Notes under the pieces: model-generated
What the model was told of the DNA's origin: nothing
What the model saw: the letters and a program-made list of their open reading frames with translations, nothing else
Database searches by the model: none
Assembly: GCA_963718995.1 (NCBI GenBank)
Contig: CAVRAP010000006.1
Coordinates: 5,795 to 69,794, forward strand
From: an uncultured Actinomycetota bacterium
GTDB taxonomy: Bacteria > Actinomycetota > Acidimicrobiia > Spongiisociales > UBA4744
Length of the DNA: 64,000 nt
Direction: 5' to 3'
Shown here: positions 3,915 to 44,582 of the stretch, piece after piece
Position numbering within the stretch: the stretch's first letter is position 1
Layout: each line of letters begins with the position of its first letter
Program-made: the position numbers and the translations under genes

Positions 3915-4337
3915 ATGCGTCGCCCACTCCTCGCCCTGGTTGTTGCCCTGGTGCTCCTGTCGGGTTGTGGAGAGGACGAAGGCAGCAATCTGGCCCCCGA
4001 CGCGGTCCCCGGCAGTATTCCGAACCTTTTCGGAAGCTACGTCGTCAACGGTTTCGACCCCCTCGGAACCGAGTACGGCGGACACCTGACCATCACCGAA
4101 GGCGAGGGCCTCAACCGCTTCCACCTCCAGTGGATCATCACCGGCAGCGTCCAGGAGGGGATCGCCAGCCTCGACGGCAACAAGCTGCTCGTCGAGTGGA
4201 GAACGGTCGATGGGCTCAACGCCGAGGCTTCCGGAACGGCCGAATACACAGTGACCGAAGCGGGCGAGCTGTATGGGACCCGCACCGTGGTCGGCAGCGA
4301 CGAGGTCGGCACGGAAGAAGCGTTCCCGAACCCCTAG
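3915..4337 (+). CDS. small secreted lipoprotein, unknown function
   Basis: Signal peptide plus lipobox 'LVLLSGCGEDE'. 140 aa with no recognisable catalytic motif. Confidence 0.55.
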   Translation: MRRPLLALVVALVLLSGCGEDEGSNLAPDAVPGSIPNLFGSYVVNGFDPLGTEYGGHLTITEGEGLNRFHLQWIITGSVQEGIASLDGNKLLVEWRTVDGLNAEASGTAEYTVTEAGELYGTRTVVGSDEVGTEEAFPNP

Positions 4338-4346
4338 GTTTCAAAC

Positions 4347-4411
4347 CGTTCTTGCGTGAGTTTCCTGCGGATATTCGCGGTTTCTCACGCAAGAACGGGA
4401 TTTTCCGCCGT
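4347..4411. terminator. perfect 15-bp inverted repeat (ccgttcttgcgtgag ... ctcacgcaagaacgg) with 22-nt spacer
   Basis: Read directly from the sequence. It lies immediately after the stop of the lipoprotein gene. It could be a terminator or an operator. Confidence 0.5.
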
Positions 4412-4453
4412 TCCTCCCCTAAAGGTGTGCCGTTGAGATATCGATATATCCAC

Positions 4454-4804
4454 ATGCCTCATTTCAACGGGACGATTCAACTCGACGACGGTGACGGTCT
4501 TGAGACGATCCTGACGGTCGACTCCGGTCGACTCATCGCGAAAGCGGGAGAACACGAAATCGGCAACTGGGCCGTCGGAGAACTCGAGATGGAACGTCGC
4601 AACGGTGAGTTCCACATCAAGGTGGAAGGCGAAGAGCTAGTCGTCGGGGTTGAAGACGCGGTCGGCTTCACGGAGATCCTCGGGATCAAAGAAGCGAAGG
4701 TGAAGGAAGGTCGACAGAAGAAAGTCCAGGGCCCCCGAGGGTCAAGCGGAAGGAGCGCAATCAGGCAGAGGCGAACCCGCCCGCCGCATCTCCCGCTCCC
4801 GTAG
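4454..4804 (+). CDS. hypothetical protein (116 aa)
   Basis: Internal ATG of ORF 3965..4804. The region upstream of the ATG is Arg/Pro-rich read-through. Acidic, no motif. Confidence 0.35.
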   Translation: MPHFNGTIQLDDGDGLETILTVDSGRLIAKAGEHEIGNWAVGELEMERRNGEFHIKVEGEELVVGVEDAVGFTEILGIKEAKVKEGRQKKVQGPRGSSGRSAIRQRRTRPPHLPLP

Positions 4805-4815
4805 TTGCGGCACCC

Positions 4816-5142
4816 GTGGCCGTGACCGAACCCCCGCCCCCGTCGATCGCCGACGCCGACGCGGCCTCCGAAAAGGGACCATCTCTGTGGGCCCGGATCC
4901 CGGCACGCGGGAAGCTGGCCGGCCTCGGTGTGATCGGTCTCGTCGTGTTCTTCTTTCTCGCCCCCAACTTGCTGGCCCTCCTGCTCCTCCTCGTCGGGGT
5001 TGCGACCCTGTTCCTGGCGATCGCCGCCAAGAGCGAGAGCGGGACGGGTGTGCTTCCGCCGCCCTTCTTCGCGACCAACGCAGCCATTGCCGGTGGTATC
5101 GGGAGTGCGGTGTTGGCGCTGATCATCATGGTGATCACCTAG
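4816..5142 (+). CDS. small membrane protein (2 TM helices)
   Basis: Two hydrophobic stretches: 'LAGLGVIGLVVFFFLAPNLLALLLLLVGVATLFLAIAA' and 'IAGGIGSAVLALIIMVIT'. Confidence 0.4.
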   Translation: MAVTEPPPPSIADADAASEKGPSLWARIPARGKLAGLGVIGLVVFFFLAPNLLALLLLLVGVATLFLAIAAKSESGTGVLPPPFFATNAAIAGGIGSAVLALIIMVIT

Positions 5143-5226
5143 CTCGACCACGCGGTCGAAAGCGCTGAACCCTTCTTTTTGCCGGCGTCGCGATATGCGC
5201 GATAGTTGTAGCCCGACCATCGCGAG

Positions 5227-6243
5227 GTGTCCGCCGTGTACCAGCCTTCCGACAACCGTTACGACAGTATGACCTTTGCCCGTTGCGGCCGCAGCGGCCT
5301 CGACCTGCCGAGGCTCTCGCTGGGCTTGTGGCATAACTTCGGTGGTGAGGGACTCTCGAAAAACGCTCGCACCATGCTGCTCAACTCCTTCGATCACGGC
5401 ATCACTCACTTCGACCTGGCCAACAACTACGGGCCGCCTCCAGGATCAGCAGAAGAGAACTTCGGCAAGATCATGGCCTCCGACCTGGCTCCGTACCGGG
5501 ACGAGCTGGTCATCTCGACCAAGGCCGGCTACCTGATGTGGGACGGACCCTACGGTGAATGGGGATCGCGCAAGTACCTGATCTCGAGCCTCGATCAGAG
5601 CCTGAAACGAATGGGTCTCGAATACGTCGACATCTTCTATTCGCATCGTTTCGATCCGGCAACGCCTCTCGAGGAAACGATGGCGGCTCTCGACTCGGCG
5701 GTGCGGTCGGGCAAGGCTCTCTATGCCGGCATCTCGTCCTACGGCCCGGACCAGACCCGGGAAGCTGCGGCCATTCTCAAGTCGCTTGGCACCCCGTGTC
5801 TGATCCATCAGCCGTCGTACTCCATGCTCAACCGCTGGGTTGAAGAGGGACTGCTCAACGTTCTCGAAGAGGAGGGCATCGGCTGCATTGCGTTCTCGCC
5901 GCTCGCCCAGGGTTTGCTGACGGACAAGTACCTCAAAGGTGTTCCGAAACGGTCCCGGGCCGCCCTCGGTGACTCGTTCAGCACCGAGCTTCTCACCGAA
6001 CAGAACCTGGCCAACGTCAGGGGACTCCACGAGATTGCGGCCGAACGCGGACAAACCCTGGCGCAGATGGCTATCGCCTGGGTTCTGCGTGACTCGCGGG
6101 TGACCTCGGCCCTGGTCGGCGCCAGCCGCTGGAAACAGATCGAGGACCTCCTCCAGGCCCTGGAACGCCCGGCTTTCAGCGACGAGGAGTTGGCCGCCAT
6201 CGACCGGTTCGCCCTGGACGGAGGCATCAACATCTGGGGGTAG
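5227..6243 (+). CDS. aldo/keto reductase (Tas/YghZ-like, L-glyceraldehyde-3-phosphate reductase type)
   Basis: AKR signatures: 'LGLWHNFG', 'FDLANNYGPPPGSAEENFG', 'ISTKAGY', 'YVDIFYSHRFDP' and 'ALVGASRWKQIEDLL'. Confidence 0.85.
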   Translation: MSAVYQPSDNRYDSMTFARCGRSGLDLPRLSLGLWHNFGGEGLSKNARTMLLNSFDHGITHFDLANNYGPPPGSAEENFGKIMASDLAPYRDELVISTKAGYLMWDGPYGEWGSRKYLISSLDQSLKRMGLEYVDIFYSHRFDPATPLEETMAALDSAVRSGKALYAGISSYGPDQTREAAAILKSLGTPCLIHQPSYSMLNRWVEEGLLNVLEEEGIGCIAFSPLAQGLLTDKYLKGVPKRSRAALGDSFSTELLTEQNLANVRGLHEIAAERGQTLAQMAIAWVLRDSRVTSALVGASRWKQIEDLLQALERPAFSDEELAAIDRFALDGGINIWG

Positions 6244-6400
6244 CCCCCCTCCGCTTCTCGCCTTTTGGCGAGAACCACCTCCCCCCTTCTCGTCGAGCTT
6301 CGCTCGCACGTTTGGTTGGTGGGAGCGAGCCCCCCTCCGCTTCTCGCCTTTTGGCGAGAACCACCTCCCCCCTTCTCGTCGAGCTTCGCTCGCCAGGGGG
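6244..6400. repeat. tandem duplication (2 x ~88 bp) of a GC-rich palindromic element
   Basis: Unit 'cccccctccgcttctcgccttttggcgagaaccacctccccccttctcgtcgagcttcgctcgc' occurs twice. It contains the hairpin ttctcgcc-tttt-ggcgagaa. Sits between the convergent AKR and cbaA genes. Confidence 0.8.
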
Positions 6401-6409
6401 GAGGTTGGG

Positions 6410-8104
6410 CTACCAGGGGCGGATGGTGGGGGCCCGGCCGGAGCTGAGGTCGATATTGGCGATCTGATCTACCAGTTGCGGGCCGTAGGCGACCAGGATC
6501 AGGAGGACGGTTGCCACGATCCACGGTACCCAGCGGTCGAGCCAGAGGGGGGTGAGCTGGGGGTCCTGCTCGGATTCGGCCACGGGGATCTCGATCGCCT
6601 GTCCCGACCCGAGGCGCTCCTTGCCCCAGGCGGTGCGGGCCATGATCACGAAGTACATGATGGCGGACACCATGAGGATGGTGCCGCCCAAACCGACCCG
6701 CAGGAGGTGGCCGGTCCACTCCTCAGGAACGTACGGGGCTACCCCGAGCGGGGTCCGGCGCGGTGCGCCGAGCAATCCGAGTACATGCATGGCGTTGGAG
6801 AAAATGAGCATGCCGATGAACCAGGTCCAGGCCTGGATGACCGCCATCCGGGGTTTCCACAGCGGTTTGCCGGTGATCCACGGCACCAGCCAGTAGGAGA
6901 TGCCCATGAAGGAGAGGGTGGTGGCCGTGGCCACGGTCAAGTGAAAATGCCCGGGCACCCAGGTGGTGTTGTGGATCACGAGGTTGACGTTGTACGACGC
7001 GTTGGTGAGTCCGCCGATCCCACCGAACATGAACAGGATCCCGGCCAGGAGCTGCGCGGTGACCGACCCATCGCTCCACGGGAGCGCGCGCACCCAGCCC
7101 AGCAGGCCCTTCCCGCCCCGCCGGCGAGCCGCACGTTCGAGTGAGGCAATCACGGTGAAGGCGGTGAGCATCGACGGCAGGAACACCGAGTAGGTGAGCA
7201 CGGCGTGGATGTATTTCCATGCAGCCGGGACGCCCGGATCGGCGAACTGATGGTGGAAACCGAGTGGTACCGACAGCAACAGGAAGAGCCACATGGCCAG
7301 GCGGGCCAGCGAATCAGAGAACAGCTTTCCGCCCGCCTGTTTCGGCAGCATCCCGTACCAGGACACGTAGGCAGGGAGCAGCCAGAAGTAGACCAGCGGG
7401 TGGCCCGTGAACCAGAAATAGGTGCGGGCCAGTTGCGGGTCGGTACCTTCGATCAGTCCCAGCGACCAGGGCAGCAGCATGGTGAGGATCTCCACGGCGA
7501 TCCCCAGGGTGGCGAACTGCCACATGGCCATCGTGACCAAACCACCGAAAGCAATGAAGGGGGTCCTGGTGTCCGGATTGTCCTTGCGCCACGCCCGGTA
7601 GGTGAAGAAGAAGCCGTATCCCTCGATCCAGCTTCCGACCACCACCAGCGTCAGCCCGGCATAGAACGCCCAGTTGGCCTGGAGCGGCGGGTAGAAGGTG
7701 TAGAGGACCGATGCTTCGTCCAGAAGGATCGGAACGGCCGCCGTGACCAGACCGACCACCATGGTCCAGAAGCCGACCCGGTTGAGCCTGGGGAAGCGGA
7801 GCCCCCGCTTGAACCCGATCAACGTGGTCAGGGTGAAGAACCCGGTGATGAAGAAGGTCGTCCAGATCAGGGCGTTGAGCACCCCGTGAATCGTGAGACC
7901 CTGGTAGTAGGTCTTGAAGACGGGTTGCAGATACGGATAGAGATCTACCCCGGAGAACTGGAAGGCTTGCAAGGGACCAAAGAAGGTGCCGATCGACAGA
8001 GCGATAATGGCGACGAGAATATGGGCGCCAATGAACCGCTTGTCCTTCCTGGTCACCTCGTAGGTGGCCGGCTCGTCTCTTCCTATCTCTTCGCGAGTCG
8101 CCAT
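6410..8104 (-). CDS. cbaA: cytochrome c oxidase subunit I, ba3 (B-family) type
   Basis: 564 aa with 13 or more TM helices. The N-terminal region, overall length and the accompanying subunit II/IIa pair match the Thermus-type ba3 oxidase. Confidence 0.85.
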   Translation of the reverse strand: MATREEIGRDEPATYEVTRKDKRFIGAHILVAIIALSIGTFFGPLQAFQFSGVDLYPYLQPVFKTYYQGLTIHGVLNALIWTTFFITGFFTLTTLIGFKRGLRFPRLNRVGFWTMVVGLVTAAVPILLDEASVLYTFYPPLQANWAFYAGLTLVVVGSWIEGYGFFFTYRAWRKDNPDTRTPFIAFGGLVTMAMWQFATLGIAVEILTMLLPWSLGLIEGTDPQLARTYFWFTGHPLVYFWLLPAYVSWYGMLPKQAGGKLFSDSLARLAMWLFLLLSVPLGFHHQFADPGVPAAWKYIHAVLTYSVFLPSMLTAFTVIASLERAARRRGGKGLLGWVRALPWSDGSVTAQLLAGILFMFGGIGGLTNASYNVNLVIHNTTWVPGHFHLTVATATTLSFMGISYWLVPWITGKPLWKPRMAVIQAWTWFIGMLIFSNAMHVLGLLGAPRRTPLGVAPYVPEEWTGHLLRVGLGGTILMVSAIMYFVIMARTAWGKERLGSGQAIEIPVAESEQDPQLTPLWLDRWVPWIVATVLLILVAYGPQLVDQIANIDLSSGRAPTIRPW

Positions 8105-8608
8105 CTACTTCTCCACCACCGTAAGGCTCCCGAACATGAAGGCATGTCCGGTGCCGCAATACTCGGTGCAGACATAGGGGTAGTCGCCAACCTTGTCGAA
8201 GGTGTGGGTCAATTTGGATACTTGCCCGGGGAGGATCTGCATGTTGATGTTGGTGTTCTGGAGTTTGAATCCGTGCTGAATGTCCAGGCTGGTGACGTAG
8301 AAAGTGACCGTGGAGTTGACCGGGACTTCAACTTCTCTGGGCTCGAACTGCCAGGTGGTTGAATTGCCGATGATGTAGAGCTCGTAGACGCCGGGGGAGA
8401 GTTCCCGCAGGCCCGGGTTCTCCCACGGACCGGTGAGGTTGTTGGGATCTACCCGCTCCTCGGGAGAGGGGACCTGAAACCCGAGGGCAAAACCGGCGAC
8501 GGTGACGGCGGCGGCGAAGACGATCACCAGGATGATCGAGACCCGCATCCAGTTCTTCTCATACGGGTCGATGTGCAAGGTCTCTTTGGTTGCGCCTGAT
8601 TCGCTCAT
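8105..8608 (-). CDS. cbaB: cytochrome c oxidase subunit II, ba3 type (CuA)
   Basis: 167 aa with one TM helix and the CuA motif 'HGF...CTEYCGTGHAFM'. Start 'MSESGATKE' overlaps the stop of the IIa gene (ATGA). Confidence 0.85.
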   Translation of the reverse strand: MSESGATKETLHIDPYEKNWMRVSIILVIVFAAAVTVAGFALGFQVPSPEERVDPNNLTGPWENPGLRELSPGVYELYIIGNSTTWQFEPREVEVPVNSTVTFYVTSLDIQHGFKLQNTNINMQILPGQVSKLTHTFDKVGDYPYVCTEYCGTGHAFMFGSLTVVEK

Positions 8609-8751
8609 ACCGTGACACCTCGCGAGAGCAGGATCACATAAACGGATCCCCACAGGATGATGATCGCCAGCACGAACATCACCAGGATCGCCACCGTCCC
8701 TCGCGGTTGAAACTCCTCTTCCTCAATTTCGGTTCGCGCCTCGTCGGCCAT
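8605..8751 (-). CDS. cbaD: cytochrome ba3 oxidase subunit IIa (48-aa single-TM peptide)
   Basis: Translated by hand from the minus strand: MADEARTEIEEEEFQPRGTVAILVMFVLAIIILWGSVYVILLSRGVTV. This is the same single-helix architecture as Thermus subunit IIa. Not in the supplied ORF list because it is under 60 aa. Confidence 0.6.
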   Translation of the reverse strand: MADEARTEIEEEEFQPRGTVAILVMFVLAIIILWGSVYVILLSRGVTV

Positions 8752-8954
8752 TCGTATCCCCTCGGCGGTGGCCCGCACGCTCGGACCGAATCGGTGTGAT
8801 TCCGGGCGAGCTTAGGAAACGAATCCGCCTGCTGCAATGTCATGAAGAAAGTGAATTTGTGCACCGCTTTGGATTGAGCCGTCGGCGCGTCGGTTTAAGA
8901 TGAGGCCGCCTTCACGCTGGAGGGGTTTTGACTTCCGGAAACTCGAAGAGACTC

Positions 8955-9644
8955 ATGCGAACGGCGCTGGGGATGATCGTCGCCGGGTTGCTGATGGTGC
9001 TGATGGCTCCGATGGCGACCGCCCAGGAGGATCTGGGTGAAGACGTCTACGGACGCAACTGCGTGGGCTGCCATCAACCTGATGGGAGCGGCATAGCCGG
9101 GAACTTCCCGCCCCTGGCCGGCAACGCCAACGTTCAAGACGCTACTTATGTCGAAGAAGTCATTCGCAACGGCAAGCAAGGTGAGCTGGTGGTAGACGGC
9201 GTCACCTATGACGGGGTGATGCCGGCTTTTGGTCAGCTCTCCGATGAGGAGATCACCGCCGTCATCGACTACGTACAAAACCGGCTGGGTGTCTCGGGTG
9301 GCGGCGACGCCGGTACTCCCGCTGAGGAGGGTACGACCTTTCCCTGGAACCTCGTCATGCTTGGTTCGGCCCAGACCATCCTTGTCGTCGGTGCGGTGTT
9401 CCTCCTGACCTCACCCCGCAAGAAGAAGGAGCTGACCTGGTGGAACGCCTACGGCCGGGCTGTCTTGATCTTCTTGTTCTTTGCGCTGGCCACTACGTGG
9501 CTTCCCTCCTGGACGATGACCCAGGAGATCATCGCCGGAGCGCCGCGGCTCGTCGGTGATCTGATCGGATCCGGCTTGTGGATGGTGATGCTGGCGGCCG
9601 GTATCGGCGGCCTGATCTGGCTGCAGAGGACGGAACGGATCTGA
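8955..9644 (+). CDS. membrane-anchored mono-haem cytochrome c
   Basis: Signal peptide, 'CVGCHQPDG' haem site, 'GVMPAF' Met-ligand region and two C-terminal TM helices. Stop overlaps the next start (TGATG at 9642-9646). ORF list starts at TTG 8928. Confidence 0.8.
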   Translation: MRTALGMIVAGLLMVLMAPMATAQEDLGEDVYGRNCVGCHQPDGSGIAGNFPPLAGNANVQDATYVEEVIRNGKQGELVVDGVTYDGVMPAFGQLSDEEITAVIDYVQNRLGVSGGGDAGTPAEEGTTFPWNLVMLGSAQTILVVGAVFLLTSPRKKKELTWWNAYGRAVLIFLFFALATTWLPSWTMTQEIIAGAPRLVGDLIGSGLWMVMLAAGIGGLIWLQRTERI

Positions 9645-11445
9645 TGGCAGGCGATCTCGTGTTCCGCCAGGAGCTGCAGTTCTACGACGAAAATATTCCC
9701 TGCCTGGCCGCTTGTCCGGTCCATACCAACGCCGGGATGTACGTGGCCGCCATCGCCGACGGGAAGGATGAGCTGGCCTATTTGACGGCCCGGTTGCCGA
9801 ATCCGTTCGCTTCGGTATGCGGACGGGTCTGCGCAGCACCTTGTGAAGATGCCTGCCGGCGCGGCGAGATTGACCGCCCCATCGCCATCCGGGCTCTCAA
9901 ACGCTTCGTCACCGAGCAGTTTGGGCCGGAGACCGAGGGCAGCGACGTTTGGAAACAGGTGGCGGCACCGCCCGAGGTCGAGCGACCGGAAAGTGTCGGG
10001 ATCGTCGGGGGTGGTCCGGCCGGGCTGGCGGCCGCGCACGACCTGCGCCGTCTCGGCTATCAGGTAACCGTGTACGAAGCCACCCGGCAGCTGGGCGGGA
10101 TGATGTTGCTCGGCATTCCCGAGTACCGGCTCGATCGGACCCTGCTGGCCAACGAGATCAAGGTCATCGTGGATCTGGGTGTTGACGTGCACCTCAATAC
10201 CAAGCTCGGGTCGGACGTCATCGTTGGACTGAATTGCGGGAGAAGCACGACGCCCTGTTCGTGGCGATCGGCGCCAACCTCGGTCGCGGTCTCGACATCG
10301 AAGGCCATGAAGCCGATGGAGTGCTGCGGGCCATCGAGTTTCTCATCAACGCCAATCAAGGATTCCAGGTCGACGTCGGAGAACGGGTGGTCGTGATCGG
10401 AGGCGGAGACGTCGCTATGGACGCAGCCCGTACCGCCTTGCGCGCCGCCGAGTACGAAGAGATAGCTCTGGGCGGCTACGTGGAGGCGGAGGAACGGGCC
10501 CACATGACCGAAGCGATGGACGTGGCCCGCACCGCCGCCCGGTCCGGCGCCCAGCACATCACGGTCATGACACTCGAGTCCCGGGAGGAAATGCCCGCCT
10601 CTGAGTTCGAGGTCGAGGAAGCGATGCACGAGGGGATCGAGTTCTTCAACCGCCGCGGTCCGGCCAGGATCGTCACGGAGAATGGCAAGGTGACCGGACT
10701 CGAGACCATCAAGGTGCTGTCGGTTTTCGACGACGAAGGGCGGTTCAGCCCCACGTTCGATCAAGACGATCGGGCAACCGTCGACGCCGACACGATCATT
10801 CTGGCCATCGGCCAGGCCATCGACGTCGAAGCCCTCGGCGACAACGGACCGGAGATAAGCCCGCGCAAAACCATCCAGGTTGGTGCCGACAGCCTGGCCA
10901 CCTCGCTGCCGATGGTGTGGTCGGGCGGCGACGCCGCTCGCGGTCCCCGCACCCTCATCGACGCCATTGCCGATGGACGCAAGGCCGCCGCCGAGATCCA
11001 TCAGGCATTTGGTGGTGCGGTTGAGGAGCGGCAACCGGGCACCATGGTGCAACTCCAGCAGTTCCACCGCCTCGACGACATCTACGACAGGATCGGACGG
11101 GTGGACGTGCCGACGCTGCCGACCGATCGTCGGATCGGTCTGGCCGAGGTCGAGACCGGTTTCACCCCGGACCAGGCGCGCTGCGAAGCCAAACGGTGTC
11201 TGCGTTGTTTCGCCAACATCCTGCTGGACACCTCGATATGTGTGCTGTGCGCTCTGTGTGCCGATGTTTGCCCCCTGGACCTGATCGACCTGGTTCCCTC
11301 CGATGAAGTGGCGCCGGGTCTCCCGATCGGGACCGCTTTGACGCTGGATGAAACAAGCTGTATTCGTTGTGCGCTCTGTATCGAGCGCTGTCCCACCGAC
11401 GCCCTGTCGATGGGGCTCTGGACAGGAGTAGGAGTGCCTGTATGA
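9644..11445 (+). CDS. GltD-like NAD(P)H-dependent FAD/Fe-S oxidoreductase with C-terminal 2x[4Fe-4S] ferredoxin domain (apparent -1/+1 frameshift near 10230)
   Basis: N-terminal GltD-type cysteines 'CLAACPVH...CGRVCAAPCEDAC', FAD site 'IVGGGPAGLAAA', NAD(P) site 'VVVIGGGDVAMDAA' and C-terminal 'CLRCFANILLDTSICVLCALCADVCP...CIRCALCIERCP'. The two ORFs 9578..10396 and 10234..11445 join as '...SDVIVGLN/ELREKHDALFVAIGA'. Confidence 0.7.
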
Positions 11446-12173
11446 AGGTCATGGATCGAGTGAGGGAGACCACGGTCGGCCGGTCGATCTGGCGGGCTCC
11501 CGACCGGGCAACGGAACGAGACCGGGCCGCCGGGCACTGGGCCAACTTCTTCCTGCACATCTACCCGGTGAAGATGCGCCGCAAGGAAATGACCTTCCGT
11601 TACACCTGGTTCCTCGGGGTGGCATCGGTCGTGTTGTTCGGATCGCTGGTCGTGTCCGGGATCTACTTGATGTTCTTCTATGTGCCGTCCCCGGCCTCTG
11701 CCTACGGCAATATCCAGAACCTCCAAACCCAGGTGGCCTTCGGGCAATACATGCGCAACGTGCACCGCTGGTCGGCCCATCTCATGGTGCTCGTGGTGGC
11801 CGCCCACATGGCGAGAGTCTTCTATCGCGGTTCCTATAAGGCGCCGAAAGAGTTCAACTGGGTGATCGGGGTCATTCTGCTCGTGCTCACGCTGCTGCTG
11901 TCGTTCACCGGCTATCTGCTCCCGTGGGATCAGCTGGCCTACTGGGCCGTAACCGTCGGAGCGGCGATGGCCGGCTTCGTGCCGCTGCTCGGAGAGACCA
12001 TCAAAGGCATCCTGATCGGCGGCGATACCGTCGGGTCGGCCACGCTGCTGCGGTTCTACGTTCTGCATGTGGCCGTCCTGCCGGTGGCGGTGGTCGTCCT
12101 GCTGACGATCCATTTGTGGCGCTGGAGAAAAGACGCCATGCTCGACACCAGGGAAGGAGGCGATGATGAGTAG
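11442..12173 (+). CDS. cytochrome b6-type (N-terminal di-haem half of cytochrome b)
   Basis: Four TM helices with His pairs 14 residues apart (HRWSAHLMVLVVAAH) and 15 apart (HVAVLPVAVVVLLTIH). ATGA overlap with the upstream gene at 11442-11445. Confidence 0.85.
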   Translation: MKVMDRVRETTVGRSIWRAPDRATERDRAAGHWANFFLHIYPVKMRRKEMTFRYTWFLGVASVVLFGSLVVSGIYLMFFYVPSPASAYGNIQNLQTQVAFGQYMRNVHRWSAHLMVLVVAAHMARVFYRGSYKAPKEFNWVIGVILLVLTLLLSFTGYLLPWDQLAYWAVTVGAAMAGFVPLLGETIKGILIGGDTVGSATLLRFYVLHVAVLPVAVVVLLTIHLWRWRKDAMLDTREGGDDE

Positions 12174-12687
12174 TCAAGAACCCGTCATCGTCGACGGGAA
12201 GCGGGTGCTTGGTGTGGTCCCCGGGAAACCCCCGGGTGGCGAGCGCAAGGTTCTCGATGAGCAAGAACCGGTGATGGTGTGGCCCCACCTCCTGATTCGC
12301 CACGGGGTGGCCGCGTTGGTCGTGATGGTCACCGTGCTCTTGCTGGCGTTGTTCTTCAACGCCCCTCTGCGCGAAATTGCCAACCCGTTGGTTACTCCCA
12401 ACCCGGAGAAGGCCCCGTGGTACTTCGCAGCGTTGCAGGAGTTGTTGAGTCATTTCCATCCGATGGTGGCCGGCGTACTCGTACCCGGCGCCATCATCAT
12501 CGGCCTCGCTGCCCTGCCCTACATGGACAGGAACCCGCAGTTGTCGCTGCGGTTCCGCAAGGTGGCGGTGGCGACCTTCACGGTGTTCATGGTGGTGTGG
12601 ATCATCCTGACGTTGATCGGCTTCATGTTTCGCGGTCCCAATTGGGGCTGGGTGTGGCCCTGGCAAGAGTGGTACGGAGAGCTATGA
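12163..12687 (+). CDS. cytochrome b C-terminal half / b6f subunit IV-like protein
   Basis: Three TM helices and a PEWY-box variant 'EKAPWYFAALQELL'. 11-nt overlap with the b6 gene. Confidence 0.75.
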   Translation: MMSSQEPVIVDGKRVLGVVPGKPPGGERKVLDEQEPVMVWPHLLIRHGVAALVVMVTVLLLALFFNAPLREIANPLVTPNPEKAPWYFAALQELLSHFHPMVAGVLVPGAIIIGLAALPYMDRNPQLSLRFRKVAVATFTVFMVVWIILTLIGFMFRGPNWGWVWPWQEWYGEL

Positions 12688-13190
12688 GCGAAGAAATCGA
12701 ACGCAGAGAGTTTCTGAAACGAGGCTGGATGACCGGCGCCGGTTTGATCGGCGTGGCCGGAGCATGGACCACGTGGGATATCTTGCAGCCTGGTGAGACC
12801 GCTGGTTTCGGCGGAGAAGTACGCACCATTGCTGCAGACGCCGTTCCCGAAACCGACGTGGTGGCGGTGCCTGCCGCCCGGGCCTACCTGACCAAGGTGG
12901 AGGGGGAGGTCGTCGCCATCTCGGAGACCTGTCCCCATCTCGGCTGTCGGGTGCCATGGTGTGAGTCCTCGGGCCAGTTCGAATGTCCCTGTCACGGGTC
13001 GATCTTCAACCGCAAGGGAGAAGCCCGGGAAGGGCCAACCCCTCGCTCCATGAGCCAGTATCCGGTCGAGATCATCGACGGTCTGGTCATCGTCAACACC
13101 GGGGCTCCGATCGAGGGCGAGCCGATCGGCACCCCGGAAACCATCGACGAGCCCGTCCGGGGCCCGTCGTGTGAGGAGGGAAGCCACTGA
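12684..13190 (+). CDS. Rieske [2Fe-2S] protein with twin-arginine signal
   Basis: 'RREFLKRG' TAT motif and Rieske boxes 'CPHLGC' and 'CPCHGS'. ATGA overlap at 12684-12687. ORF 12279..13190 trimmed to this ATG. Confidence 0.85.
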   Translation: MSEEIERREFLKRGWMTGAGLIGVAGAWTTWDILQPGETAGFGGEVRTIAADAVPETDVVAVPAARAYLTKVEGEVVAISETCPHLGCRVPWCESSGQFECPCHGSIFNRKGEAREGPTPRSMSQYPVEIIDGLVIVNTGAPIEGEPIGTPETIDEPVRGPSCEEGSH

Positions 13191-13651
13191 TGCCCGAACG
13201 GCCCCCGGATCCCGCCCTGGAGGAATCGACTAACAAGTGGATGCAGTGGGGTCTGGTGCTGATGGTCATCATGGTGCTGGCGTTCCCCATCTACCGGATC
13301 ATCGAGCCGGACCGCCGCGCCGATGCCGCCGAGGGTCGGGTGACCGAACTGGCCGCCCAGGGTGATGAGTTGTTTGCTCTCACCTGTTCGGGTTGCCACG
13401 GCCAGGAAGGTCGCGGCGGCGCCACCGCTCCGACCCTCAACGCCAAGGAATTCCTCCAGGCGGCGGTTGACCTGCAGATCGAGTCGCTGATCGCCACCGG
13501 CGTCCCCGGTTCGCAGATGAGCCCTTACTCGTTGGACTTCGGCGGTCCGTTCACCCAGGAACAGATCGTCGCCCTCACCACGTACCTGCGGTCACTCGAA
13601 CCCGACGCCCCGAGCGTGCCCGACTGGAGAGACGGCGTCCCGGCCGGCTAG
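13190..13651 (+). CDS. membrane-anchored mono-haem cytochrome c
   Basis: N-terminal TM helix, 'CSGCHGQEG' haem motif and 'GSQMSPY' Met ligand. TGATG overlap at 13188-13192. Confidence 0.8.
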   Translation: MPERPPDPALEESTNKWMQWGLVLMVIMVLAFPIYRIIEPDRRADAAEGRVTELAAQGDELFALTCSGCHGQEGRGGATAPTLNAKEFLQAAVDLQIESLIATGVPGSQMSPYSLDFGGPFTQEQIVALTTYLRSLEPDAPSVPDWRDGVPAG

Positions 13652-13768: not shown

Positions 13769-14077
13769 CTAGACCGGGGAGTCCTCGTAGTGCATGGCCA
13801 TGACCTGGCGGAGCAGGTCGACGGCTTCCACGATCTTCATCGTGGTCAATGAATAGAAGACGAACTGGCCGTCCTTGCGGGCTTTGACCAAACCCCGTTC
13901 TCGCATGATCGCCAGGTGCTGAGAGACATTGGCCTGAGGAAGGTCGAGCTCCTCACAGATCTCACCGACCGACATCTCGCCGTTACGAAGCACATTGATG
14001 ATCAGAAGGCGTTTTGGATCGGCGAGTCCCTTGCAGACGCTGGCGTGCAGTTGGTTGAGTTCGTGGGCAATCGACAT
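13769..14077 (-). CDS. ArsR/SmtB-family transcriptional regulator
   Basis: 102-aa winged HTH: 'LADPKRLLIINVL...MSVGEICEELDLPQANVSQHLAIMRERGLV'. Confidence 0.8.
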   Translation of the reverse strand: MSIAHELNQLHASVCKGLADPKRLLIINVLRNGEMSVGEICEELDLPQANVSQHLAIMRERGLVKARKDGQFVFYSLTTMKIVEAVDLLRQVMAMHYEDSPV

Positions 14078-14244
14078 TGCTGGTCACTATGCCACAAGCC
14101 AGAAGGAAAACAAAGATGTATTCATCTCGTGGCATATGTTGCTTTGGCCGGGGTCTGGGAAACGGCTGGGGAGGACGGAATACTGTTTGTCCTATCTCCG
14201 TAGTGCTAATAGCCTGCAGCAACACTGTCTGTTCAGGTGAGGTC

Positions 14245-15937: not shown

Positions 15938-16123
15938 GGTTTCCAGTTTCCAGTTTCCAGTTCGTCCAGTAACCAGTTTCCAGTTATCAGTTATCAGTTA
16001 TCGGGTATCGGTATCAGAGAGTGGTATGCCGTTCGCTGGCTACTGGCTACTGGCTACCGGCTACTGGCTACTGGCTACTGGCTGACTGGCTGCTGGCTGC
16101 TGGCTACTGGCTACTGGCTACTG
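15938..16123. repeat. CAGT-core heptanucleotide tandem repeat array, inverted two-arm organisation
   Basis: Left arm (ccagttt)x3 then (tcagtta)x3 on the top strand. Right arm (ctggcta/ctggctg)x~12, which is (ccagtag)n on the bottom strand. Runs up to the stop codon of the MmpL gene. Confidence 0.9.
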
Positions 16124-21454: not shown

Positions 21455-22597
21455 TTGAGGGAGGTTCCTATGCGACACAAGCGTGTCGTTTTTTCTGTAA
21501 TCACCGTCCTCGCCTTGTTGCTGACCGCCTGCGGCGGCGGCGAAGCGGAGACGACCACCACTGCAGCCCCTGCTGCTACTACCACCACGGAAGCGCCAAC
21601 GACCACGGAAGCGCCTACCACCACCGAAGCCCCGTTTGAGGCTCCGGACGGTGCGCTGGTTTCCTATCCGGCCGATGCGGCTCCTGCACTCGACGGCGTT
21701 GCCGACGATGCGGCATGGGCCGATGCCCCCGAAGTCAACGTCAGTGTCTCCGGCGGGTCCAACAGCGGTGCGGCCGATGTGACGCTGAAGTCGGTGCATT
21801 CCGGCGACATGGTGTATTTCCTGGTCAGCTGGGATGACCCGACCGAGAGCTACCTGCGCTCCCCTTGGGAGAAGCTGGCCGACGGCACCTGGGCCCAGAA
21901 GTCGGACCCGGATGACAAGGGTGGCGACAACAACGTGTGGTACGAGGACAAGATGTCGATGATCTGGAATATCGGCAACACCATCCCCGACTTCGACACC
22001 GTTGGTTGTTTCACCGCTTGCCATGCGGGTGAAGACTCCGACGCCAAGCCATACGGAAACAAGTACACCGACGAAGAAGGACAGCTGGGCGACATCTGGC
22101 ACTGGAAGTCGGTTCGTAACCTGAACCAGGTTGACGACCAGTACCTGGACTCCACCCGCTATTCCGCCGACACGCCCGGCGCCGGACGCCACGGCGACCC
22201 CAGCGACGGTGGCGGTTATACCAACAACAAGACCGAGGACGGCTCGTTGCCTGCCTTCATGGCTCCCGACGGCGGGTCGAAGGACGGCGCTCCCGGCTAC
22301 ATCCTCGATTCCGAGAAGGTTGAGTTCGACGACTCGCTGTTCGCCGTTGGTGACCTGCTGCCCGGCATTTACAAGACCGAGTTCACCGGTGATCGTGGAG
22401 ATCTCACGGCCGGATTCGCCTACGCCGGCGGTACCTGGACTGTGGAAATCGGTCGCAAGCTTGTGACCGGATCTGAGTTTGACGTCCAGTTCGACGACAT
22501 GGCCGGGCTCTACCACTTCGGGGTAGCCACGTTTGACAATGCCCAGGTGCGGCATTCGTTCCAGACGGGTGTCGTTCCGTTCGTGTTCAAGCCGTAA
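21455..22597 (+). CDS. secreted lipoprotein with Thr-rich linker and a putative haem-binding EB_dh/DOMON-like domain
   Basis: Lipobox 'LLLTACGG', linker 'TTTEAPTTTEAPTTTEAP', and similarity in architecture to the ethylbenzene-dehydrogenase-gamma/DOMON fold ('GCFTACHAG'). Assignment is tentative. Confidence 0.4.
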   Translation: MREVPMRHKRVVFSVITVLALLLTACGGGEAETTTTAAPAATTTTEAPTTTEAPTTTEAPFEAPDGALVSYPADAAPALDGVADDAAWADAPEVNVSVSGGSNSGAADVTLKSVHSGDMVYFLVSWDDPTESYLRSPWEKLADGTWAQKSDPDDKGGDNNVWYEDKMSMIWNIGNTIPDFDTVGCFTACHAGEDSDAKPYGNKYTDEEGQLGDIWHWKSVRNLNQVDDQYLDSTRYSADTPGAGRHGDPSDGGGYTNNKTEDGSLPAFMAPDGGSKDGAPGYILDSEKVEFDDSLFAVGDLLPGIYKTEFTGDRGDLTAGFAYAGGTWTVEIGRKLVTGSEFDVQFDDMAGLYHFGVATFDNAQVRHSFQTGVVPFVFKP

Positions 22598-22784: not shown

Positions 22785-23648
22785 CTAGAGCTCTCGGTGC
22801 CACTCAGCAATGGCCCGGCCGATCTCGTCGGGGGAATCTTCCTGAATGAAGTGGATTCCGGGGACGGTCGCCTCGGTCTGGTTCGGCCACGTGCGGCAGA
22901 ACTCGCGCTGGGGGCCGATCAGAATCGAGCCGGGGTCGGCGTTGATAAACAACTTGGGCAGGTCGCTGGTTGCCAGCCATTGCGAGTAGCCGTCGACGAT
23001 ACGGTGCACGTCGGCCGGCGAGCCGTTGATGGGGATCTCCCGGGGCCAGGTGAGCATCGGGCGCCGGGCTTCGCCCGCCTCGAGATAGGGCTTGCGATAT
23101 TCGGTCATCTCCGCCTCAGTCAGATCCCGCATGATGGATCCGGGTAGCACCCGCTCGATGAAGAGATTGCGGGCGAGGATCATCTCTTCACCCGCCTCGG
23201 ACCGGAGCCCCGCGAAGAACTGGCGGGCCGAGGCTGGCCACTCTTCCCACGTCACCGGTCGGACGATGGCCTCCATGTAGGCGATCCCTTTCACAGAATC
23301 CCGGTGACGGTTGGCCCAATCGAAGCCGAGTCCCGACCCCCAGTCGTGGAGGACCAGGGTGACGTTCGCATCGACGCCGAGTACGTCGAGCAGAGTATCG
23401 AGGTAGGAACTGTGTTCCAGGAAGCGGTAGGTGCCTGCGCCGCTCGGGGTTTGCTTTTGCGAGTCGCCCATGCCGAGGAGATCCGGGGCGATGCAGCGGC
23501 CGTGCTCCTGGAGGTGGGGGATCACGTTGCGCCACAGATACGAAGAGGTCGGATTGCCGTGCAGGAACACAATGGGGTCGCCCCGGCCCGTCTCGACATA
23601 GGCCATGGAGTGGCCGAGCACCTCGACCCGCTTCTTCTCGTATGCCAT
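22785..23648 (-). CDS. haloalkane dehalogenase-like alpha/beta hydrolase
   Basis: 'VFLHGNPTSSYLWRNVIPHL' oxyanion/HGxP region, nucleophile 'VLHDWGSGLGF' and 'IHFIQEDSPDEI' His region. Trimmed from ORF 22785..23777 to the ATG at 23648. Confidence 0.75.
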   Translation of the reverse strand: MAYEKKRVEVLGHSMAYVETGRGDPIVFLHGNPTSSYLWRNVIPHLQEHGRCIAPDLLGMGDSQKQTPSGAGTYRFLEHSSYLDTLLDVLGVDANVTLVLHDWGSGLGFDWANRHRDSVKGIAYMEAIVRPVTWEEWPASARQFFAGLRSEAGEEMILARNLFIERVLPGSIMRDLTEAEMTEYRKPYLEAGEARRPMLTWPREIPINGSPADVHRIVDGYSQWLATSDLPKLFINADPGSILIGPQREFCRTWPNQTEATVPGIHFIQEDSPDEIGRAIAEWHREL

Positions 23649-23791
23649 CCCGCCTCCCCGATCGCTTTCCCCGAACGCTACCCCGCACTCCCGTGGAAAA
23701 CGCAGGAACTTTGGGGCGCCATCCGGACTTCCTATACTTCCGGCACTGCGGGGCGCAGGCGTCCCGGCTTCGAGCACGAGGGGTAGGTCGG

Positions 23792-24157
23792 GTGAGTCCG
23801 TACTTTCAGGACTACGTGACGGTGGCAGCGTTTGGAGCGCTGGGCGTCGTGCTGGTGCTCGCCCTGCTGGGGATAGCTTCCATCTTTCGCCCTTCTCATC
23901 CGCATCCCGCCAAGCTCCTGACGTACGAGTGCGGAGTCGATCCGGTCGGGGGGGATTGGAGCCAGTCGCAGGTCAGGTACTACATCTTTGGCCTGCTGTT
24001 CGTGATCTTCGACGTCGAAGCGGTGTTCATTTTTCCGTGGGCCATCATCCTCGAGCGACTCGGTGTGTTCGGCCTGGTTGAGATGGTGATCTTCATATTC
24101 ATCCTGCTCCTGGGCCTGATCTATGCCATCCGCAAAGGAGTGCTCAAGTGGGAGTGA
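23792..24157 (+). CDS. nuoA: NADH-quinone oxidoreductase subunit A
   Basis: 3-TM protein with 'YECGVDP' and '[15 protein letters not shown]' motifs. GTG start. Confidence 0.85.
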
Positions 24158-24645
24158 TCGAACGATTCGGGATGCCAAAACCGGTGTCCTGGCTGCTCAA
24201 CTGGGGTCGTAAGTACTCGCTGTGGATGTATCAGTTCGGGTTGGCTTGCTGTGCCATCGAAATGATCGCTGCCGCCGGTCCCCGCTTCGACATGATGAGG
24301 TTCGGGATCATCCCGCTGCCCGCTTCTCCCCGGCAGGCCGACCTGATGATCGTGGCCGGCACCGTGACCGACAAGATGGCACCCGCCGTGCGCCGCCTGT
24401 ACGAGCAGATGCCTGATCCCAAGTATGTGATCTCGATGGGATCGTGCGCCAACTGCGGCGGTCCGTACTGGGACTCGTACTCGGTGACGAAAGGAGTCGA
24501 TCAGATCATCCCCGTTGACGTGTACGTACCCGGTTGCCCGCCCCGACCGGAAGCCTTGATGGAAGGGATCGTTCTGCTCCAGAAGAAGATCCAAAACGAG
24601 AATCTCCAGGAGAAGTGGAAAGAGCGTGCCGAGCAACCCGTCTAA
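24148..24645 (+). CDS. nuoB: NADH-quinone oxidoreductase subunit B (N2 cluster)
   Basis: '[10 protein letters not shown]', '[10 protein letters not shown]' and 'VPGCPPRPE'. Confidence 0.9.
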
Positions 24646-25207
24646 TACCGCGGATTCTCAAGAGGTGCTCTTCGCCTATGCGGAGCACGTCGCCGACGTT
24701 CTCGACGCGGACCCGGTGGTAGCTCGTCATGGAACGGTCAAGGCGCACGTTCCGAGGGAGCGCTGGATCGAGGCCCTCACCAAGGCCCGGGACGATCTCG
24801 GTCTGGTTTTCTTCTCGTGGTTGTCCGCCATCGACTGGTCGAATCAGGTCGAGGTGGGGGATCCCCCTGCTGAGGAAGTCGACGAACGTCTCGAACTTCT
24901 GTGCACGATCAGCGACCTGTCCGAAGGCAAGCGGGTCACCATCTCCACCGAGGTTTCCAAGGACGACCCGACGATGCCGACGGCCACCGGCGTGTACCGG
25001 GGCGCCAACTGGCACGAACGGGAGACCTTCGAGATGTTCGGGATCGACTTCACCGGCCACCCCGACCTGAAAAAGCTCTACCTGGTTGAGGATTTCGAGG
25101 GGAACCCGCTTCGTAAGTCGTTCCCGTTGCTGAGCCGCGAAGTGAAACCGTGGCCCGGCACGGTGGATGTCGAGGCGATGCCGTCTACCGAAAATCCGGA
25201 GGCGTGA
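24626..25207 (+). CDS. nuoC: NADH-quinone oxidoreductase subunit C
   Basis: 30-kDa subunit fold: '[30 protein letters not shown]'. Confidence 0.85.
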
Positions 25208-26391: not shown

Positions 26392-26448
26392 TGCCTGCGA
26401 CCTACGGCCGCAGGTTGACGAACTTCGTTCGTCGCTCGCTGCGCTCGA

Positions 26449-26536
26449 TCAGTTTCCAGTTTCCAGTTTCCAGTTTCCAGCAAGGAGGCGGTCCTCGATT
26501 GCGGACTGGCTACTGGCAACTGGCTACTGGCTACTG
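26449..26536. repeat. CAGT-core heptanucleotide repeat array, inverted two-arm organisation, inside the nuo cluster
   Basis: (cagtttc)x4, then 'caaggaggcggtcctcgattgcgga', then (ctggcta/ctggcaa)x4. Fills most of the 163-bp nuoD-nuoH spacer. Confidence 0.9.
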
Positions 26537-26554
26537 CTTGCCTCCGCAGGAGGC

Positions 26555-27538: not shown

Positions 27539-27996
27539 TGGAACTCCGCATCCCCGGGCTCGCCAGAGGCATGTGGGTCACGTTGAAGACCCTCTTCAAG
27601 AAGCCGGTCACCATCAACTACCCCAAGGTCAAGGAAACCCCGGTGCCCCGGGCCCGCGGCGTTATCGCCCTCGACCAGGAGGCCTGCACGGTGTGCATGT
27701 TGTGCGCCCGCAACTGTCCCGACTGGTGCATCTACATTGAGGGTCACAAGGAAGAGCAGGTACCGGACAAGCCGGGCGGCCGGGTCAAGGTACGAGCCGA
27801 ACTGGACCGTTTCGACATCGATTACGCCCTCTGCATGTACTGCGGCATCTGCGTTGAGGTGTGCCCGTTCGATGCCCTCTTCTGGACCCCCGAGTATGAG
27901 TACTCCGAGTATCAGATGGGCGAAATGATGCACGACATGGACCGCCTGCAGGACTGGCTGCAGACGGTGCCGGAACCGCCGGAGTTGGAGACCTAG
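27538..27996 (+). CDS. nuoI: NADH-quinone oxidoreductase subunit I (2x[4Fe-4S])
   Basis: '[12 protein letters not shown]' and '[12 protein letters not shown]'. ATGA overlap with nuoH. Confidence 0.9.
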
Positions 27997-28895: not shown

Positions 28896-28899
28896 CGGC

Positions 28900-30930: not shown

Positions 30931-30943
30931 GAGGGACGAGAGC

Positions 30944-44322: not shown

Positions 44323-44415
44323 CCTGGCGCCCAGCGCCTCCTTGAGCCAGGCTCAAGTAAGTTAAAAAAGGCGGAGAATCGCTTGCGATTCTCCAACCTG
44401 AACTCGAAGGTTCAG

Positions 44416-44488: not shown

Positions 44489-44582
44489 CGAAGCGGCGAC
44501 CGAAACTCGTCGTGACACGGGCTTGGCCAAGGGCGACGAAGCGCCGCAGGCGGTTCGTCCAACCTGAAGCGAAGCTTCAGGC

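Follow-up and report, generated by a model that had tools for sequence, protein, structure and literature searches.

Among described respiratory complexes, the closest counterparts of the system treated here are the Rieske/cytochrome b complexes of anammox bacteria, known from the Kuenenia gene sets Kustd1480-1485 and Kuste4569-4574 with their flavoproteins Kustd1483 and Kuste4570 (Kartal 2011/2013, de Almeida 2016, Hauser 2025). The Kuenenia subunits co-migrate in complexome analyses (de Almeida 2016, as cited in PMC5600118 and PMC12954380), crystal structures have been obtained for two Kuenenia Rieske proteins (PMC12954380, 2025), and AlphaFold3 models place four Fe-S clusters between the membrane and the FAD (Hauser et al. 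2025, PMC12954380). Complexome co-migration, Rieske potentials and models are so far the data that bear on the function of Rieske/cytochrome b complexes equipped with an NAD(P) oxidoreductase. The present work concerns an operon of this kind in a 64,000-nucleotide (64-kb) stretch of contig CAVRAP010000006.1, from an uncultured bacterium of the Acidimicrobiia (Actinomycetota). This whole stretch is called the window and all coordinates refer to it, except where they are given for a related locus (L001 and so on), each of which was readable with flanks of about 10 kb.

Six plus-strand genes at 8928-13651, identified by a Pfam domain search of the plus-strand frames, encode a cytochrome c, an Fe-S flavoprotein, a cytochrome b6, a subunit IV, a Rieske protein and a second cytochrome c, in the order already proposed by the first-pass annotation of the sequence. 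The operon encodes a quinol-oxidising Rieske/b6 core with c-type haem subunits facing the outside, and a ba3-type oxidase is encoded next to it; the flavoprotein gene is tightly and anciently linked to this core. The whole is an aerobic, oxygen-linked relative of the anammox complexes. As set out below, there is strong support for regarding the flavoprotein-bearing operon as the standard respiratory operon of a large clade of Acidimicrobiia, and if the flavoprotein is wired to this core, then in whichever direction the electrons run, ordinary aerobes would possess a bc-type complex in exchange with their pyridine nucleotides.

Conservation of the operon and its place among known complexes

The closest flavoproteins are found in metagenome-assembled genomes (MAGs) of Acidimicrobiia/Actinomycetota: the best 120 matches are 70-98% identical in local BLASTP alignments and measure 575-647 residues, nearly all of them about 600. 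A conservation scan with one genome per GTDB species gave 21 loci, from MAGs of the Acidimicrobiia type (one record is labelled Gemmatimonadales). The order cytochrome c, flavoprotein, cytochrome b, subunit IV, Rieske protein, cytochrome c recurs in every one of these loci that is long enough, down to about 70% flavoprotein identity, and in most of them the ba3 oxidase is the divergent neighbour. Since the six-gene order is kept across 21 species-level loci, we regard it as the normal state of a large clade; the possibility that the flavoprotein gene is a lineage-specific insertion, which would have shown as its absence from relatives, came out negative. The ba3 oxidase is the conserved divergent neighbour of the bc operon and likely its electron sink.

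When metagenome contigs were scanned with the C-terminal module of the flavoprotein, 80 loci were recovered, and wherever the flank suffices the flavoprotein gene adjoins those for cytochrome b, subunit IV and the Rieske protein, in three gene orders. Forty-five of these loci are Acidimicrobiia-like, about 34 form a GC-rich soil/peat group and one belongs to Methylomirabilota. The soil/peat loci, many of them on peat-soil-style IMG contigs, have the order flavoprotein, Rieske protein, cytochrome b, subunit IV, and their flavoproteins are 40-46% identical to that of the window where the gene is fully covered. The arrangement is no rarity shared with anammox bacteria only: it is the rule throughout a large clade of Acidimicrobiia, and Methylomirabilota and the soil/peat group possess it as well. 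The association of such a flavoprotein with Rieske/cytochrome b is widespread, as Dibrova et al. already noted: cytochromes b belonging to subfamily G are found together with sizeable oxidoreductases of the NAD(P)-binding Fe-S type, “in many other cases” besides those of planctomycetes (Dibrova et al. 2017, PMC5600118). Literature searches whose coverage stopped short of Dibrova 2013 (PMC3839093) and of the supplementary trees of Dibrova 2017 returned no description of the operon in Acidimicrobiia.

Far from being peculiar to anammox bacteria, the flavoprotein is a fixed companion of this type of cytochrome b, both in the abundant aerobic Acidimicrobiia and in further groups. Its genes now go by the names “FAD-dependent oxidoreductase”, “formate dehydrogenase beta subunit” or “glutamate synthase small subunit-like” and deserve annotation as genes for bc-complex subunits. 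Close relatives of the cytochrome b also occur without the flavoprotein, in Latescibacterota, in Acidobacteriia and on another contig (L025-L027). Judged by cytochrome b identity, the Acidimicrobiia form is a separate deep branch: it shares 45-50% identity with every other member sampled, while those others share 60-72% with one another. Some soil/peat loci have cytochrome b and subunit IV fused into a single protein of 427-456 residues encoded beside the flavoprotein (L076, 4579-5862; L105, 6814-8184; also L095 and L103), and these are independent examples of the b6-subunit IV fusion discussed by Dibrova et al.

For a direct comparison with anammox bacteria we used a Brocadiaceae locus (L023) found by a search with the aligned part of 9rk3, which is taken here as one of the two Kuenenia Rieske structures of PMC12954380 and which is about 85-89% identical to the Rieske proteins of anammox-type operons. 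Its genes encode, in order, a Rieske protein, a cytochrome b (251 residues), an Fe-S flavoprotein (568 residues), a subunit IV (280 residues) and a 936-residue multi-haem cytochrome c, and the cluster that holds its flavoprotein contains proteins bearing the names Candidatus Brocadia, Kuenenia, Scalindua and Wunengus. The likeness to the anammox architecture that had been suggested from the window alone is upheld: the two flavoproteins are 36% identical over their full length (595 aligned residues) with the same domain order, the cytochromes b 47% identical, N-terminal extension included, and the subunits IV 39% identical, with the motif KAPWYF common to both. Both systems combine a split cytochrome b6 and subunit IV with a Rieske protein and have the Fe-S flavoprotein gene inside the operon, and the flavoproteins agree in having six N-terminal cysteines, the motif RCLxC and a tail of the 2x[4Fe-4S] type.

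The two systems differ in several respects. The window genes run cytochrome c, flavoprotein, cytochrome b, subunit IV, Rieske protein, cytochrome c, whereas the anammox order is Rieske protein, cytochrome b, flavoprotein, subunit IV, cytochrome c. The c-type subunits of the window are two mono-haem cytochromes (one CxxCH was located in each) instead of the 936-residue multi-haem protein of L023 or the hexa- or octa-haem cytochromes that mark the anammox type, and subunit IV has 174 residues and three transmembrane helices instead of 280 and five. The cysteine of haem cn (CxGG) is absent from the window protein and kept in the anammox and Methylomirabilota forms, and the NAD domain of the window flavoprotein carries an insertion of 33-36 residues and a Leu-Glu where the anammox enzyme has Arg-Arg. 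Finally, the partner in the window is an O2-reducing ba3 oxidase in an aerobe, in contrast to the nitrite/NO chemistry of an anaerobe.

Among structurally characterised complexes, cytochrome b6f is the nearest. It provides the best solved-structure matches both for cytochrome b (E=7e-43) and for the Rieske protein, whose top PDB matches are b6f Rieske proteins and, in second place, 9rk3; the split of b6 and subunit IV and the bis-His spacings of 14 and 15 residues are likewise common to both. Unlike b6f, the window system is without the haem cn (ci) cysteine, cytochrome f and small Pet subunits: Phe57 stands opposite Cys35 of cytochrome b6, the motif WFLGV being found in all Acidimicrobiia homologues aligned, and a pair of mono-haem cytochromes of class I provides the c-type haems. 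The operon is a member of the b6-like Rieske/cytochrome b complexes, without haem cn and cytochrome f. Ferredoxin:NADP+ reductase (FNR) is reportedly associated with b6f, a finding ascribed to Zhang et al. in 2001. The window flavoprotein differs from FNR as an operon-encoded Fe-S protein of the NfnB/GltD type; by analogy, FNR bound at the n-side of b6f may serve as a precedent for electron input to the N-side of such a complex from a pyridine-nucleotide flavoprotein.

Two further groups of complexes were compared. The subfamily G operons, exemplified by Geobacter ExtOPQ/Cbc6 and Methylomirabilis DAMO_0768, supply the best NCBIfam matches of cytochrome b and subunit IV, namely ExtP (264.6 bits, cut-off 290) and ExtQ (62.7 bits, cut-off 150), and the window proteins share the N-terminal extension and KAPWYF with their Latescibacterota, Acidobacteriia and anammox members. 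An identity with ExtP/ExtQ was rejected on these scores and for want of any ext genes, and the Geobacter Ext cluster, which has multi-haem cytochromes and no flavoprotein, was rejected as a homologous flavoprotein system. The actinobacterial QcrCAB (bcc)-aa3 system belongs to the same phylum, and there, as here, membrane-anchored c haems could relay electrons to the oxidase without a soluble cytochrome c; in the window, however, cytochrome b is of the short b6 type, the c haems sit on two separate mono-haem proteins, the oxidase is of the ba3 type and a flavoprotein subunit is added. QcrABC proper is marked by a long QcrB, a QcrA with three transmembrane helices and a di-haem QcrC. The scores against NF050120 (106 bits, against a cut-off of 500), NF050121 (35 against 275) and NF050122 (45 against 200) rule out a QcrABC identity, the last of them reflecting a weak resemblance of the last cytochrome c to the first half of the actinobacterial di-haem QcrC.

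The flavoprotein: cofactor sites, dinucleotide pocket and reading frame

The assignment of the flavoprotein to the NfnB/GltD family of FAD/NAD(P)/Fe-S proteins, made at first from motifs, agrees with its Pfam, NCBIfam and PDB matches, the last of which include 9bov (4e-89), NfnA 9n5u (2e-83), NfnB 4ylf (2e-66), 5jca (3e-64) and GltD 2vdc (9e-54). The protein consists of a Fer4_20 domain, an FAD site (GGGPAG), an NAD site (GGGDVAMD), an RCLRC linker and a 2x[4Fe-4S] ferredoxin domain. The Fer4_20, FAD and NAD(P) Rossmann domains are those of the NfnB/GltD/SudA family at large; unlike these proteins, the window flavoprotein has no adjacent GltB or NfnA partner and no Arg-Arg pair, and it possesses an extra C-terminal ferredoxin module. 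It stays below every NCBIfam cut-off, its two halves scoring 104 and 83 bits with TIGR01317 (cut-off 448) and 105 and 121 bits with TIGR01318 (cut-off 483). An identity as GltD was rejected on account of these scores, the lack of an adjacent gltB and a TLES pocket instead of YRR; an identity as NfnB was rejected because the operon has no NfnA-like gene, six rather than eight N-terminal cysteines are present and Leu-Glu replaces Arg-Arg.

A genuine GltD, encoded in the related locus L001 (93% identical DNA), is only 26-30% identical to the flavoprotein. It belongs to a glutamate synthase pair (1533-residue GltB and 478-residue GltD, 14493-20530 of L001) that stands a few kb from the flavoprotein gene, between ArsR-like and FTR1 permease genes. 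The pair is absent at the matching site of the window, at about 14146-14183, and represents an indel polymorphism between close relatives.

The N-terminal Fe-S domain of GltD and NfnB contains eight cysteines. The first-pass annotation had described cysteines of this type in the flavoprotein; the domain is indeed present, but only six of the eight are conserved. A conserved RCLxC that precedes the C-terminal ferredoxin domain apparently provides the CxxC that is lacking there. Overall the flavoprotein has 16 conserved cysteines, the N-terminal six included, which would be enough for four [4Fe-4S] clusters and match the four modelled by Hauser et al. 2025. The C-terminal module common to Acidimicrobiia and anammox bacteria reads EAxRCLxC...NI..D..CxLCxxCxDVCP ... 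CIRCxLCxxRCP. A PDB search with the linker/RCLRC fragment, considered as a possible permuted N-terminal motif of GltD, gave generic polyferredoxin matches only and was uninformative.

The dinucleotide pocket separates the Acidimicrobiia proteins from their anammox homologues. In this enzyme family a basic pair holds the 2'-phosphate of NADPH, while the classical determinant of NAD is an acidic residue where strand beta2 ends. This end reads [ST]LE[SA] in 120 of 120 Acidimicrobiia homologues (TLES in the window) and YRR[TS] in 120 of 120 anammox homologues, and the two solved relatives for which alignments were shown have YRRT (9bov) and YRRS (9n5u). The dinucleotide domain of the Acidimicrobiia proteins also contains an insertion of 33-36 residues that repeats the first helix (DVAMDAARTALR ... 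EAMDVARTAARS), and the soil/peat proteins have LE[SK] and a longer spacing, as in Acidimicrobiia. By the established pocket rule, Leu-Glu versus Arg-Arg at the end of beta2 leads us to infer that the Acidimicrobiia and soil flavoproteins would be NADH-linked and the anammox type NADPH-linked. The family would then come in two flavours, one with YRR and one with LE and the insertion, and these may work in opposite directions physiologically.

The window copy of the gene is not the intact reading frame of about 600 codons that had been described. Its 1802 nucleotides are not divisible by 3: the frame that starts the gene reaches a stop at 10396 and the rest lies in another frame from about 10228, so that a 250-residue N-terminal piece is followed by a separately called C-terminal piece of 403 residues. 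The annotation of the source assembly calls only the 403-residue fragment, whereas the other members of its 90% cluster (three of three) have 599 residues. Alignment to L001, which holds an intact 599-residue orthologue (P0001), traces the break to two extra bases. Once both are removed, an open reading frame of 1800 nucleotides and 599 residues is restored, with seven amino-acid differences from P0001 (98.8% identity) and a ratio of non-synonymous to synonymous substitution rates (dN/dS) of 0.033, equal to that of the neighbouring cytochrome b gene. Programmed frameshifting was rejected, since there is no slippery site, the two single-base insertions are separate and 10 nucleotides apart, and the close orthologues are all in frame.

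Other genes are interrupted in the same way. In a glgB-like gene of the window (34629-36703, plus strand), with CBM48 and with catalytic and C-terminal alpha-amylase domains, a frame change near 35590-35600, at EHSDEREG/FHPDWGS, leaves two reading frames (34629-35720 and 35717-36703); one extra G in a GGG run is the apparent cause. In sister MAGs of the “MFD” series, frameshifts were seen in COX1 of L001 (7337-7442), in the flavoprotein gene of L018, at a different site (about 8795), and at several sites of L022 and L014; the genes hit include those for cytochrome b, the Rieske protein and cytochrome c. The gene calls of these MAGs are unreliable for inferring pseudogenes.

Proposed mechanism and direction of electron flow

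The quinone of the complex is presumably menaquinone. Menaquinol would be oxidised at the Qo site, with one electron passing through the Rieske protein and the cytochrome c subunits to the adjacent ba3 oxidase and O2. We infer that the flavoprotein docks on the cytoplasmic face, where its Fe-S chain would join FAD and NAD(H) to the N-side of the b-haem chain; on this side the b haems would be wired through the C-terminal ferredoxin domain and the remaining Fe-S chain. The flavoprotein may then act as an NADH-oxidising input module whose electrons enter haem bH and a quinone site on the N-side. On this reading, to which we assign a probability of roughly 45%, one complex would unite the activities of an NADH- and a menaquinol:cytochrome c oxidoreductase, as an NDH-2-like input mounted on a bc complex, analogous to FNR on b6f. 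It is favoured by the NADH-type pocket, the presumably heterotrophic and aerobic host and the FNR precedent, and also by the marginal energetics of the reverse reaction. Some 10 kb downstream, a complex I cluster of 11 genes (nuoABCDHIJKLMN, 23642-34013, plus strand) is indeed devoid of nuoE, nuoF and nuoG between nuoD and nuoH, as first observed. The nuoEFG genes could sit elsewhere in the genome, and the 11-subunit complex I is compatible with the idea of NADH input, not evidence for it.

A number of points weigh against NADH input. Sequence does not show which way the electrons flow, and the case for this clade is a genomic one. A donor at -320 mV feeding haem bH would tend to hold the b haems in the reduced state, which could block turnover at the Qo site; the N-side quinone site is putative, and the haem cn cysteine is absent. 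The published anammox hypothesis has the opposite direction, a quinol-driven reduction of NAD(P)+ in which a strong oxidant pulls the other electron (PMC12954380). His62 of Kustd1481 was proposed there, from a model, as a ligand of an extra interfacial haem b, and it aligns, through a 275-residue Brocadiaceae orthologue of the Kustd1481 type (numbering checked via Arg266/Lys267), with His39 (LHIYP) of the window cytochrome b; since this histidine is also conserved in the flavoprotein-less L025, it is not specific to the extra haem and makes weak evidence for one. An AlphaFold2 model of the intact orthologue, built with 29 homologues, has a mean predicted local distance difference test score (pLDDT) of 55.5, with the Fe-S domains below 50, and is too poor for cluster geometry. 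To this may be added that the flavoprotein gene is formally interrupted in the window sequence itself.

The anammox hypothesis can be transferred to an aerobe: the high-potential electron of a bifurcation at the Qo site would reach O2 through the Rieske protein, cytochrome c and ba3 oxidase, and the low-potential electron would travel through bL, bH, Fe-S clusters and FAD to NAD+, in a Q cycle that hands its recycled electron to NAD+ and not to an N-side quinone. Such a scheme (the Kartal/Hauser model) has been published for the homologous anammox complexes on the basis of Rieske potentials above +300 mV and cofactor paths in AlphaFold3 models, and the CPCHGS-x-F type pattern is by the same paper's description that of the Kustd1480 Rieske protein, measured at +335 mV (PMC12954380). 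The window Rieske protein shows this pattern (Ser present, Tyr absent), as does the anammox-type Rieske protein of L023 (CPCHGSGF). The lack of a haem cn cysteine and of an evident N-side quinone site would also suit this direction, which moreover avoids over-reduction of the b haems by NADH. A Ser-containing Rieske box is, however, also found in ordinary menaquinol-oxidising actinobacterial QcrA, so that the argument from the Rieske box is weak. Cytochrome c and ba3 oxidase lie at about +250 to +300 mV. With menaquinone at about -70 mV and NAD at -320 mV (standard potentials, PMC12954380), we estimate that some 650-750 meV per two electrons would be available on the way to cytochrome c, against some 410-490 meV required for NAD+ reduction and a further 300 meV or so for moving two charges against the membrane potential, a marginal balance unlike that of anammox bacteria with nitrite/NO (+380 mV). 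An aerobic heterotroph has no obvious need for this reaction, and the pocket is of the NADH type, in contrast to the YRR of NADPH type in the enzymes of the autotrophic anammox bacteria. Quinol-driven NAD+ reduction is a possible direction for the window complex, though less probable than NADH input.

Two other explanations take the flavoprotein out of the electron path altogether. It might be co-transcribed without being a stable wired subunit, and serve a soluble partner (ferredoxin or other) or a regulatory or redox-sensing role beside an ordinary Q cycle: its putative association with the complex in Acidimicrobiia is read from gene neighbourhood, the solved structures nearest to it come from modules of soluble enzymes (Nfn, formate-dehydrogenase-like proteins, GltD), and the cytochrome b relatives of L025-L027 work without it. 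The ATGA/TGATG coupling on both sides of the gene, the adjacency kept over at least four lineages in spite of rearranged gene orders, the conservation between clades of a family-specific C-terminal ferredoxin module and the co-migration of the subunits in Kuenenia (de Almeida 2016, in the account of PMC12954380) render such an unwired role very improbable. Hardly better placed is the view that the gene is a true, very recent pseudogene in this organism and that the complex runs without a flavoprotein, for which one can quote the presence of the frameshift in the deposited assembly, with a 403-residue fragment as the gene caller's product, the position of both insertions outside homopolymer runs and the existence of related complexes that lack the flavoprotein. 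A dN/dS of 0.033 over the whole gene, equal to the cytochrome b value, and only seven amino-acid differences from the intact orthologue after removal of two bases speak against it, as do the intact remaining members of the 90% cluster. The indel in a homopolymer that splits a second conserved gene of the window and the frameshifts at other random sites, in the operon and in COX1, of related long-read MAGs point in the same direction. In view of the low dN/dS, the split glgB-like gene and the scattered frameshifts of the sister long-read MAGs, the interruption is most likely an indel error of long-read assembly, and we consider a pseudogene improbable.

Set in wider terms, NADH input and its reverse can be joined in one statement, which we make tentatively and at somewhat less than even odds. 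In aerobic Acidimicrobiia, Methylomirabilota and the soil/peat group, a Rieske/cytochrome b complex would carry an NADH-specific Fe-S flavoprotein on its N-side and would either pass electrons from NADH to cytochrome c and ba3 oxidase, as a “complex I+III” in one piece, which may replace the missing NuoEFG module, or make NADH by O2-driven quinol bifurcation. With aerobic carriers and O2 as acceptor, these organisms would be more tractable than anammox bacteria for deciding between NADH:cytochrome c and quinol:NAD+ activity.

Locus layout and other features of the window

The genes of the operon and its surroundings are listed in Table 1. On re-reading, the five stop/start overlaps between successive operon genes proved exact (TGATG, ATGA, 11 nucleotides, ATGA and TGATG). 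In the first cytochrome c the haem motif stands as first read, while the two C-terminal transmembrane anchors become three hydrophobic segments by hydropathy (142-160, 174-197 and 208-230) in addition to the signal peptide. The bis-His pairs of cytochrome b6 are H108/H122 in helix B, 14 apart, and H209/H224 in helix D, 15 apart. Subunit IV has its variant of the PEWY box, APWYF, at residue 84 (KAPWYF; a Qo-site motif of the PxWY type), and the Rieske boxes are CPHLGC at residue 83 and CPCHGS at 101 (CPCHGS-I-F), downstream of a twin-arginine translocation (Tat) motif. In the last cytochrome c, CSGCH stands at residue 66 and a single transmembrane segment (20-38) near the N-terminus. Apart from the third anchor segment of the first cytochrome c, the overlaps, motifs and anchors had been predicted from the sequence, as had the divergent ba3 oxidase, which is backed by the match of its subunit I to 1EHK and by the CoxIIa-like reading frame. 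The start of ba3 subunit II is placed according to a 167-residue orthologue. A consensus scan for sigma-70 promoters and for terminators gave nothing of use and revealed no promoter-like site in the intergenic stretch between the two operons.

Table 1. Genes and other features in and around the Rieske/cytochrome b operon of the window (ORF, open reading frame; TM, transmembrane segment; HTH, helix-turn-helix).
Feature	Position	Strand	Basis
ba3-type haem-copper oxidase subunit I (COX1)	6410..8104	-	564-residue ORF; T. thermophilus ba3 1EHK/1XME, E=1e-143; next to the operon at most related loci
ba3 oxidase subunit II (cupredoxin, without fused cytochrome c domain)	8105..8608	-	PF00116 COX2 in L001 orthologue
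CoxIIa-like single-TM ba3 subunit	8605..8778	-	57-residue ORF; L001 orthologue with weak PF08113 CoxIIa match
Intergenic stretch between divergent oxidase and bc operons, presumed promoters	8779..8927	.	Position only
Mono-haem class I cytochrome c, membrane-anchored, signal peptide, CVGCH at residue 45	8928..9644	+	PF00034/PF13442; first operon gene, conserved
NfnB/GltD-family Fe-S flavoprotein gene, frameshifted in assembly	9644..11445	+	Pfam; NCBIfam NF009410
Lesion in flavoprotein gene: extra bases A10220 and T10230, net +2 frameshift	10220..10230	+	Alignment to L001
Cytochrome b6-type four-helix cytochrome b, N-terminal extension	11442..12173	+	PF00033, 4e-44
Subunit IV, 174 residues, three main hydrophobic segments	12163..12687	+	PF00032, 2e-13
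Tat-exported Rieske [2Fe-2S] protein	12684..13190	+	PF00355; RREFLKRG
N-terminally anchored mono-haem cytochrome c	13190..13651	+	PF00034/PF13442
ArsR/MarR-type HTH regulator, convergent	13769..14077	-	HTH_5/HTH_20/MarR_2 in L001 orthologue; neighbour in L001-L006, L018, L021

Some related loci contain additional genes beside the oxidase or the operon. In L028, a 773-residue fusion of a cytochrome b N-terminal domain, a 4Fe-4S dicluster domain and an FlpD/MvhD-like domain is encoded directly 3' of the COX1 gene of the ba3 oxidase (4205-6526, minus strand), and weaker matches to it occur in L003, L004, L007, L011 and L014; it is absent from the window and represents another membrane cytochrome b with a cytoplasmic Fe-S module. 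Genes for a GAF/HisKA_3 sensor kinase and for LuxR-type regulators adjoin the bc operon in the same locus.

Elsewhere in the window, two heptamer tandem repeats lie in intergenic DNA 5' of an MMPL transporter gene, with about 6 copies of GTTTCCA at 15939-15985 and about 12.4 copies of CTGGCTA at 16036-16123; this may be a contingency locus or a tract prone to slippage. A 380-residue protein with an EB_dh domain (21455-22597, plus strand) corresponds to the ethylbenzene dehydrogenase gamma/NarI-like haem b subunit of type II enzymes of the DMSO-reductase family. A conserved region of translation and transcription genes comprises tRNA-Tyr/Thr/Met, an EF-Tu-sized reading frame, tRNA-Trp, nusG, L11 and rpoB/rpoC-sized reading frames (44241-44657, 48110-48186 and 44697-60691), NusG and L11 being identified by Pfam and EF-Tu and rpoB/rpoC by the size of their reading frames. 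Between tuf and tRNA-Trp it is interspersed with unrelated genes for a MaoC-like dehydratase and a sigma factor of the extracytoplasmic function (ECF) type.

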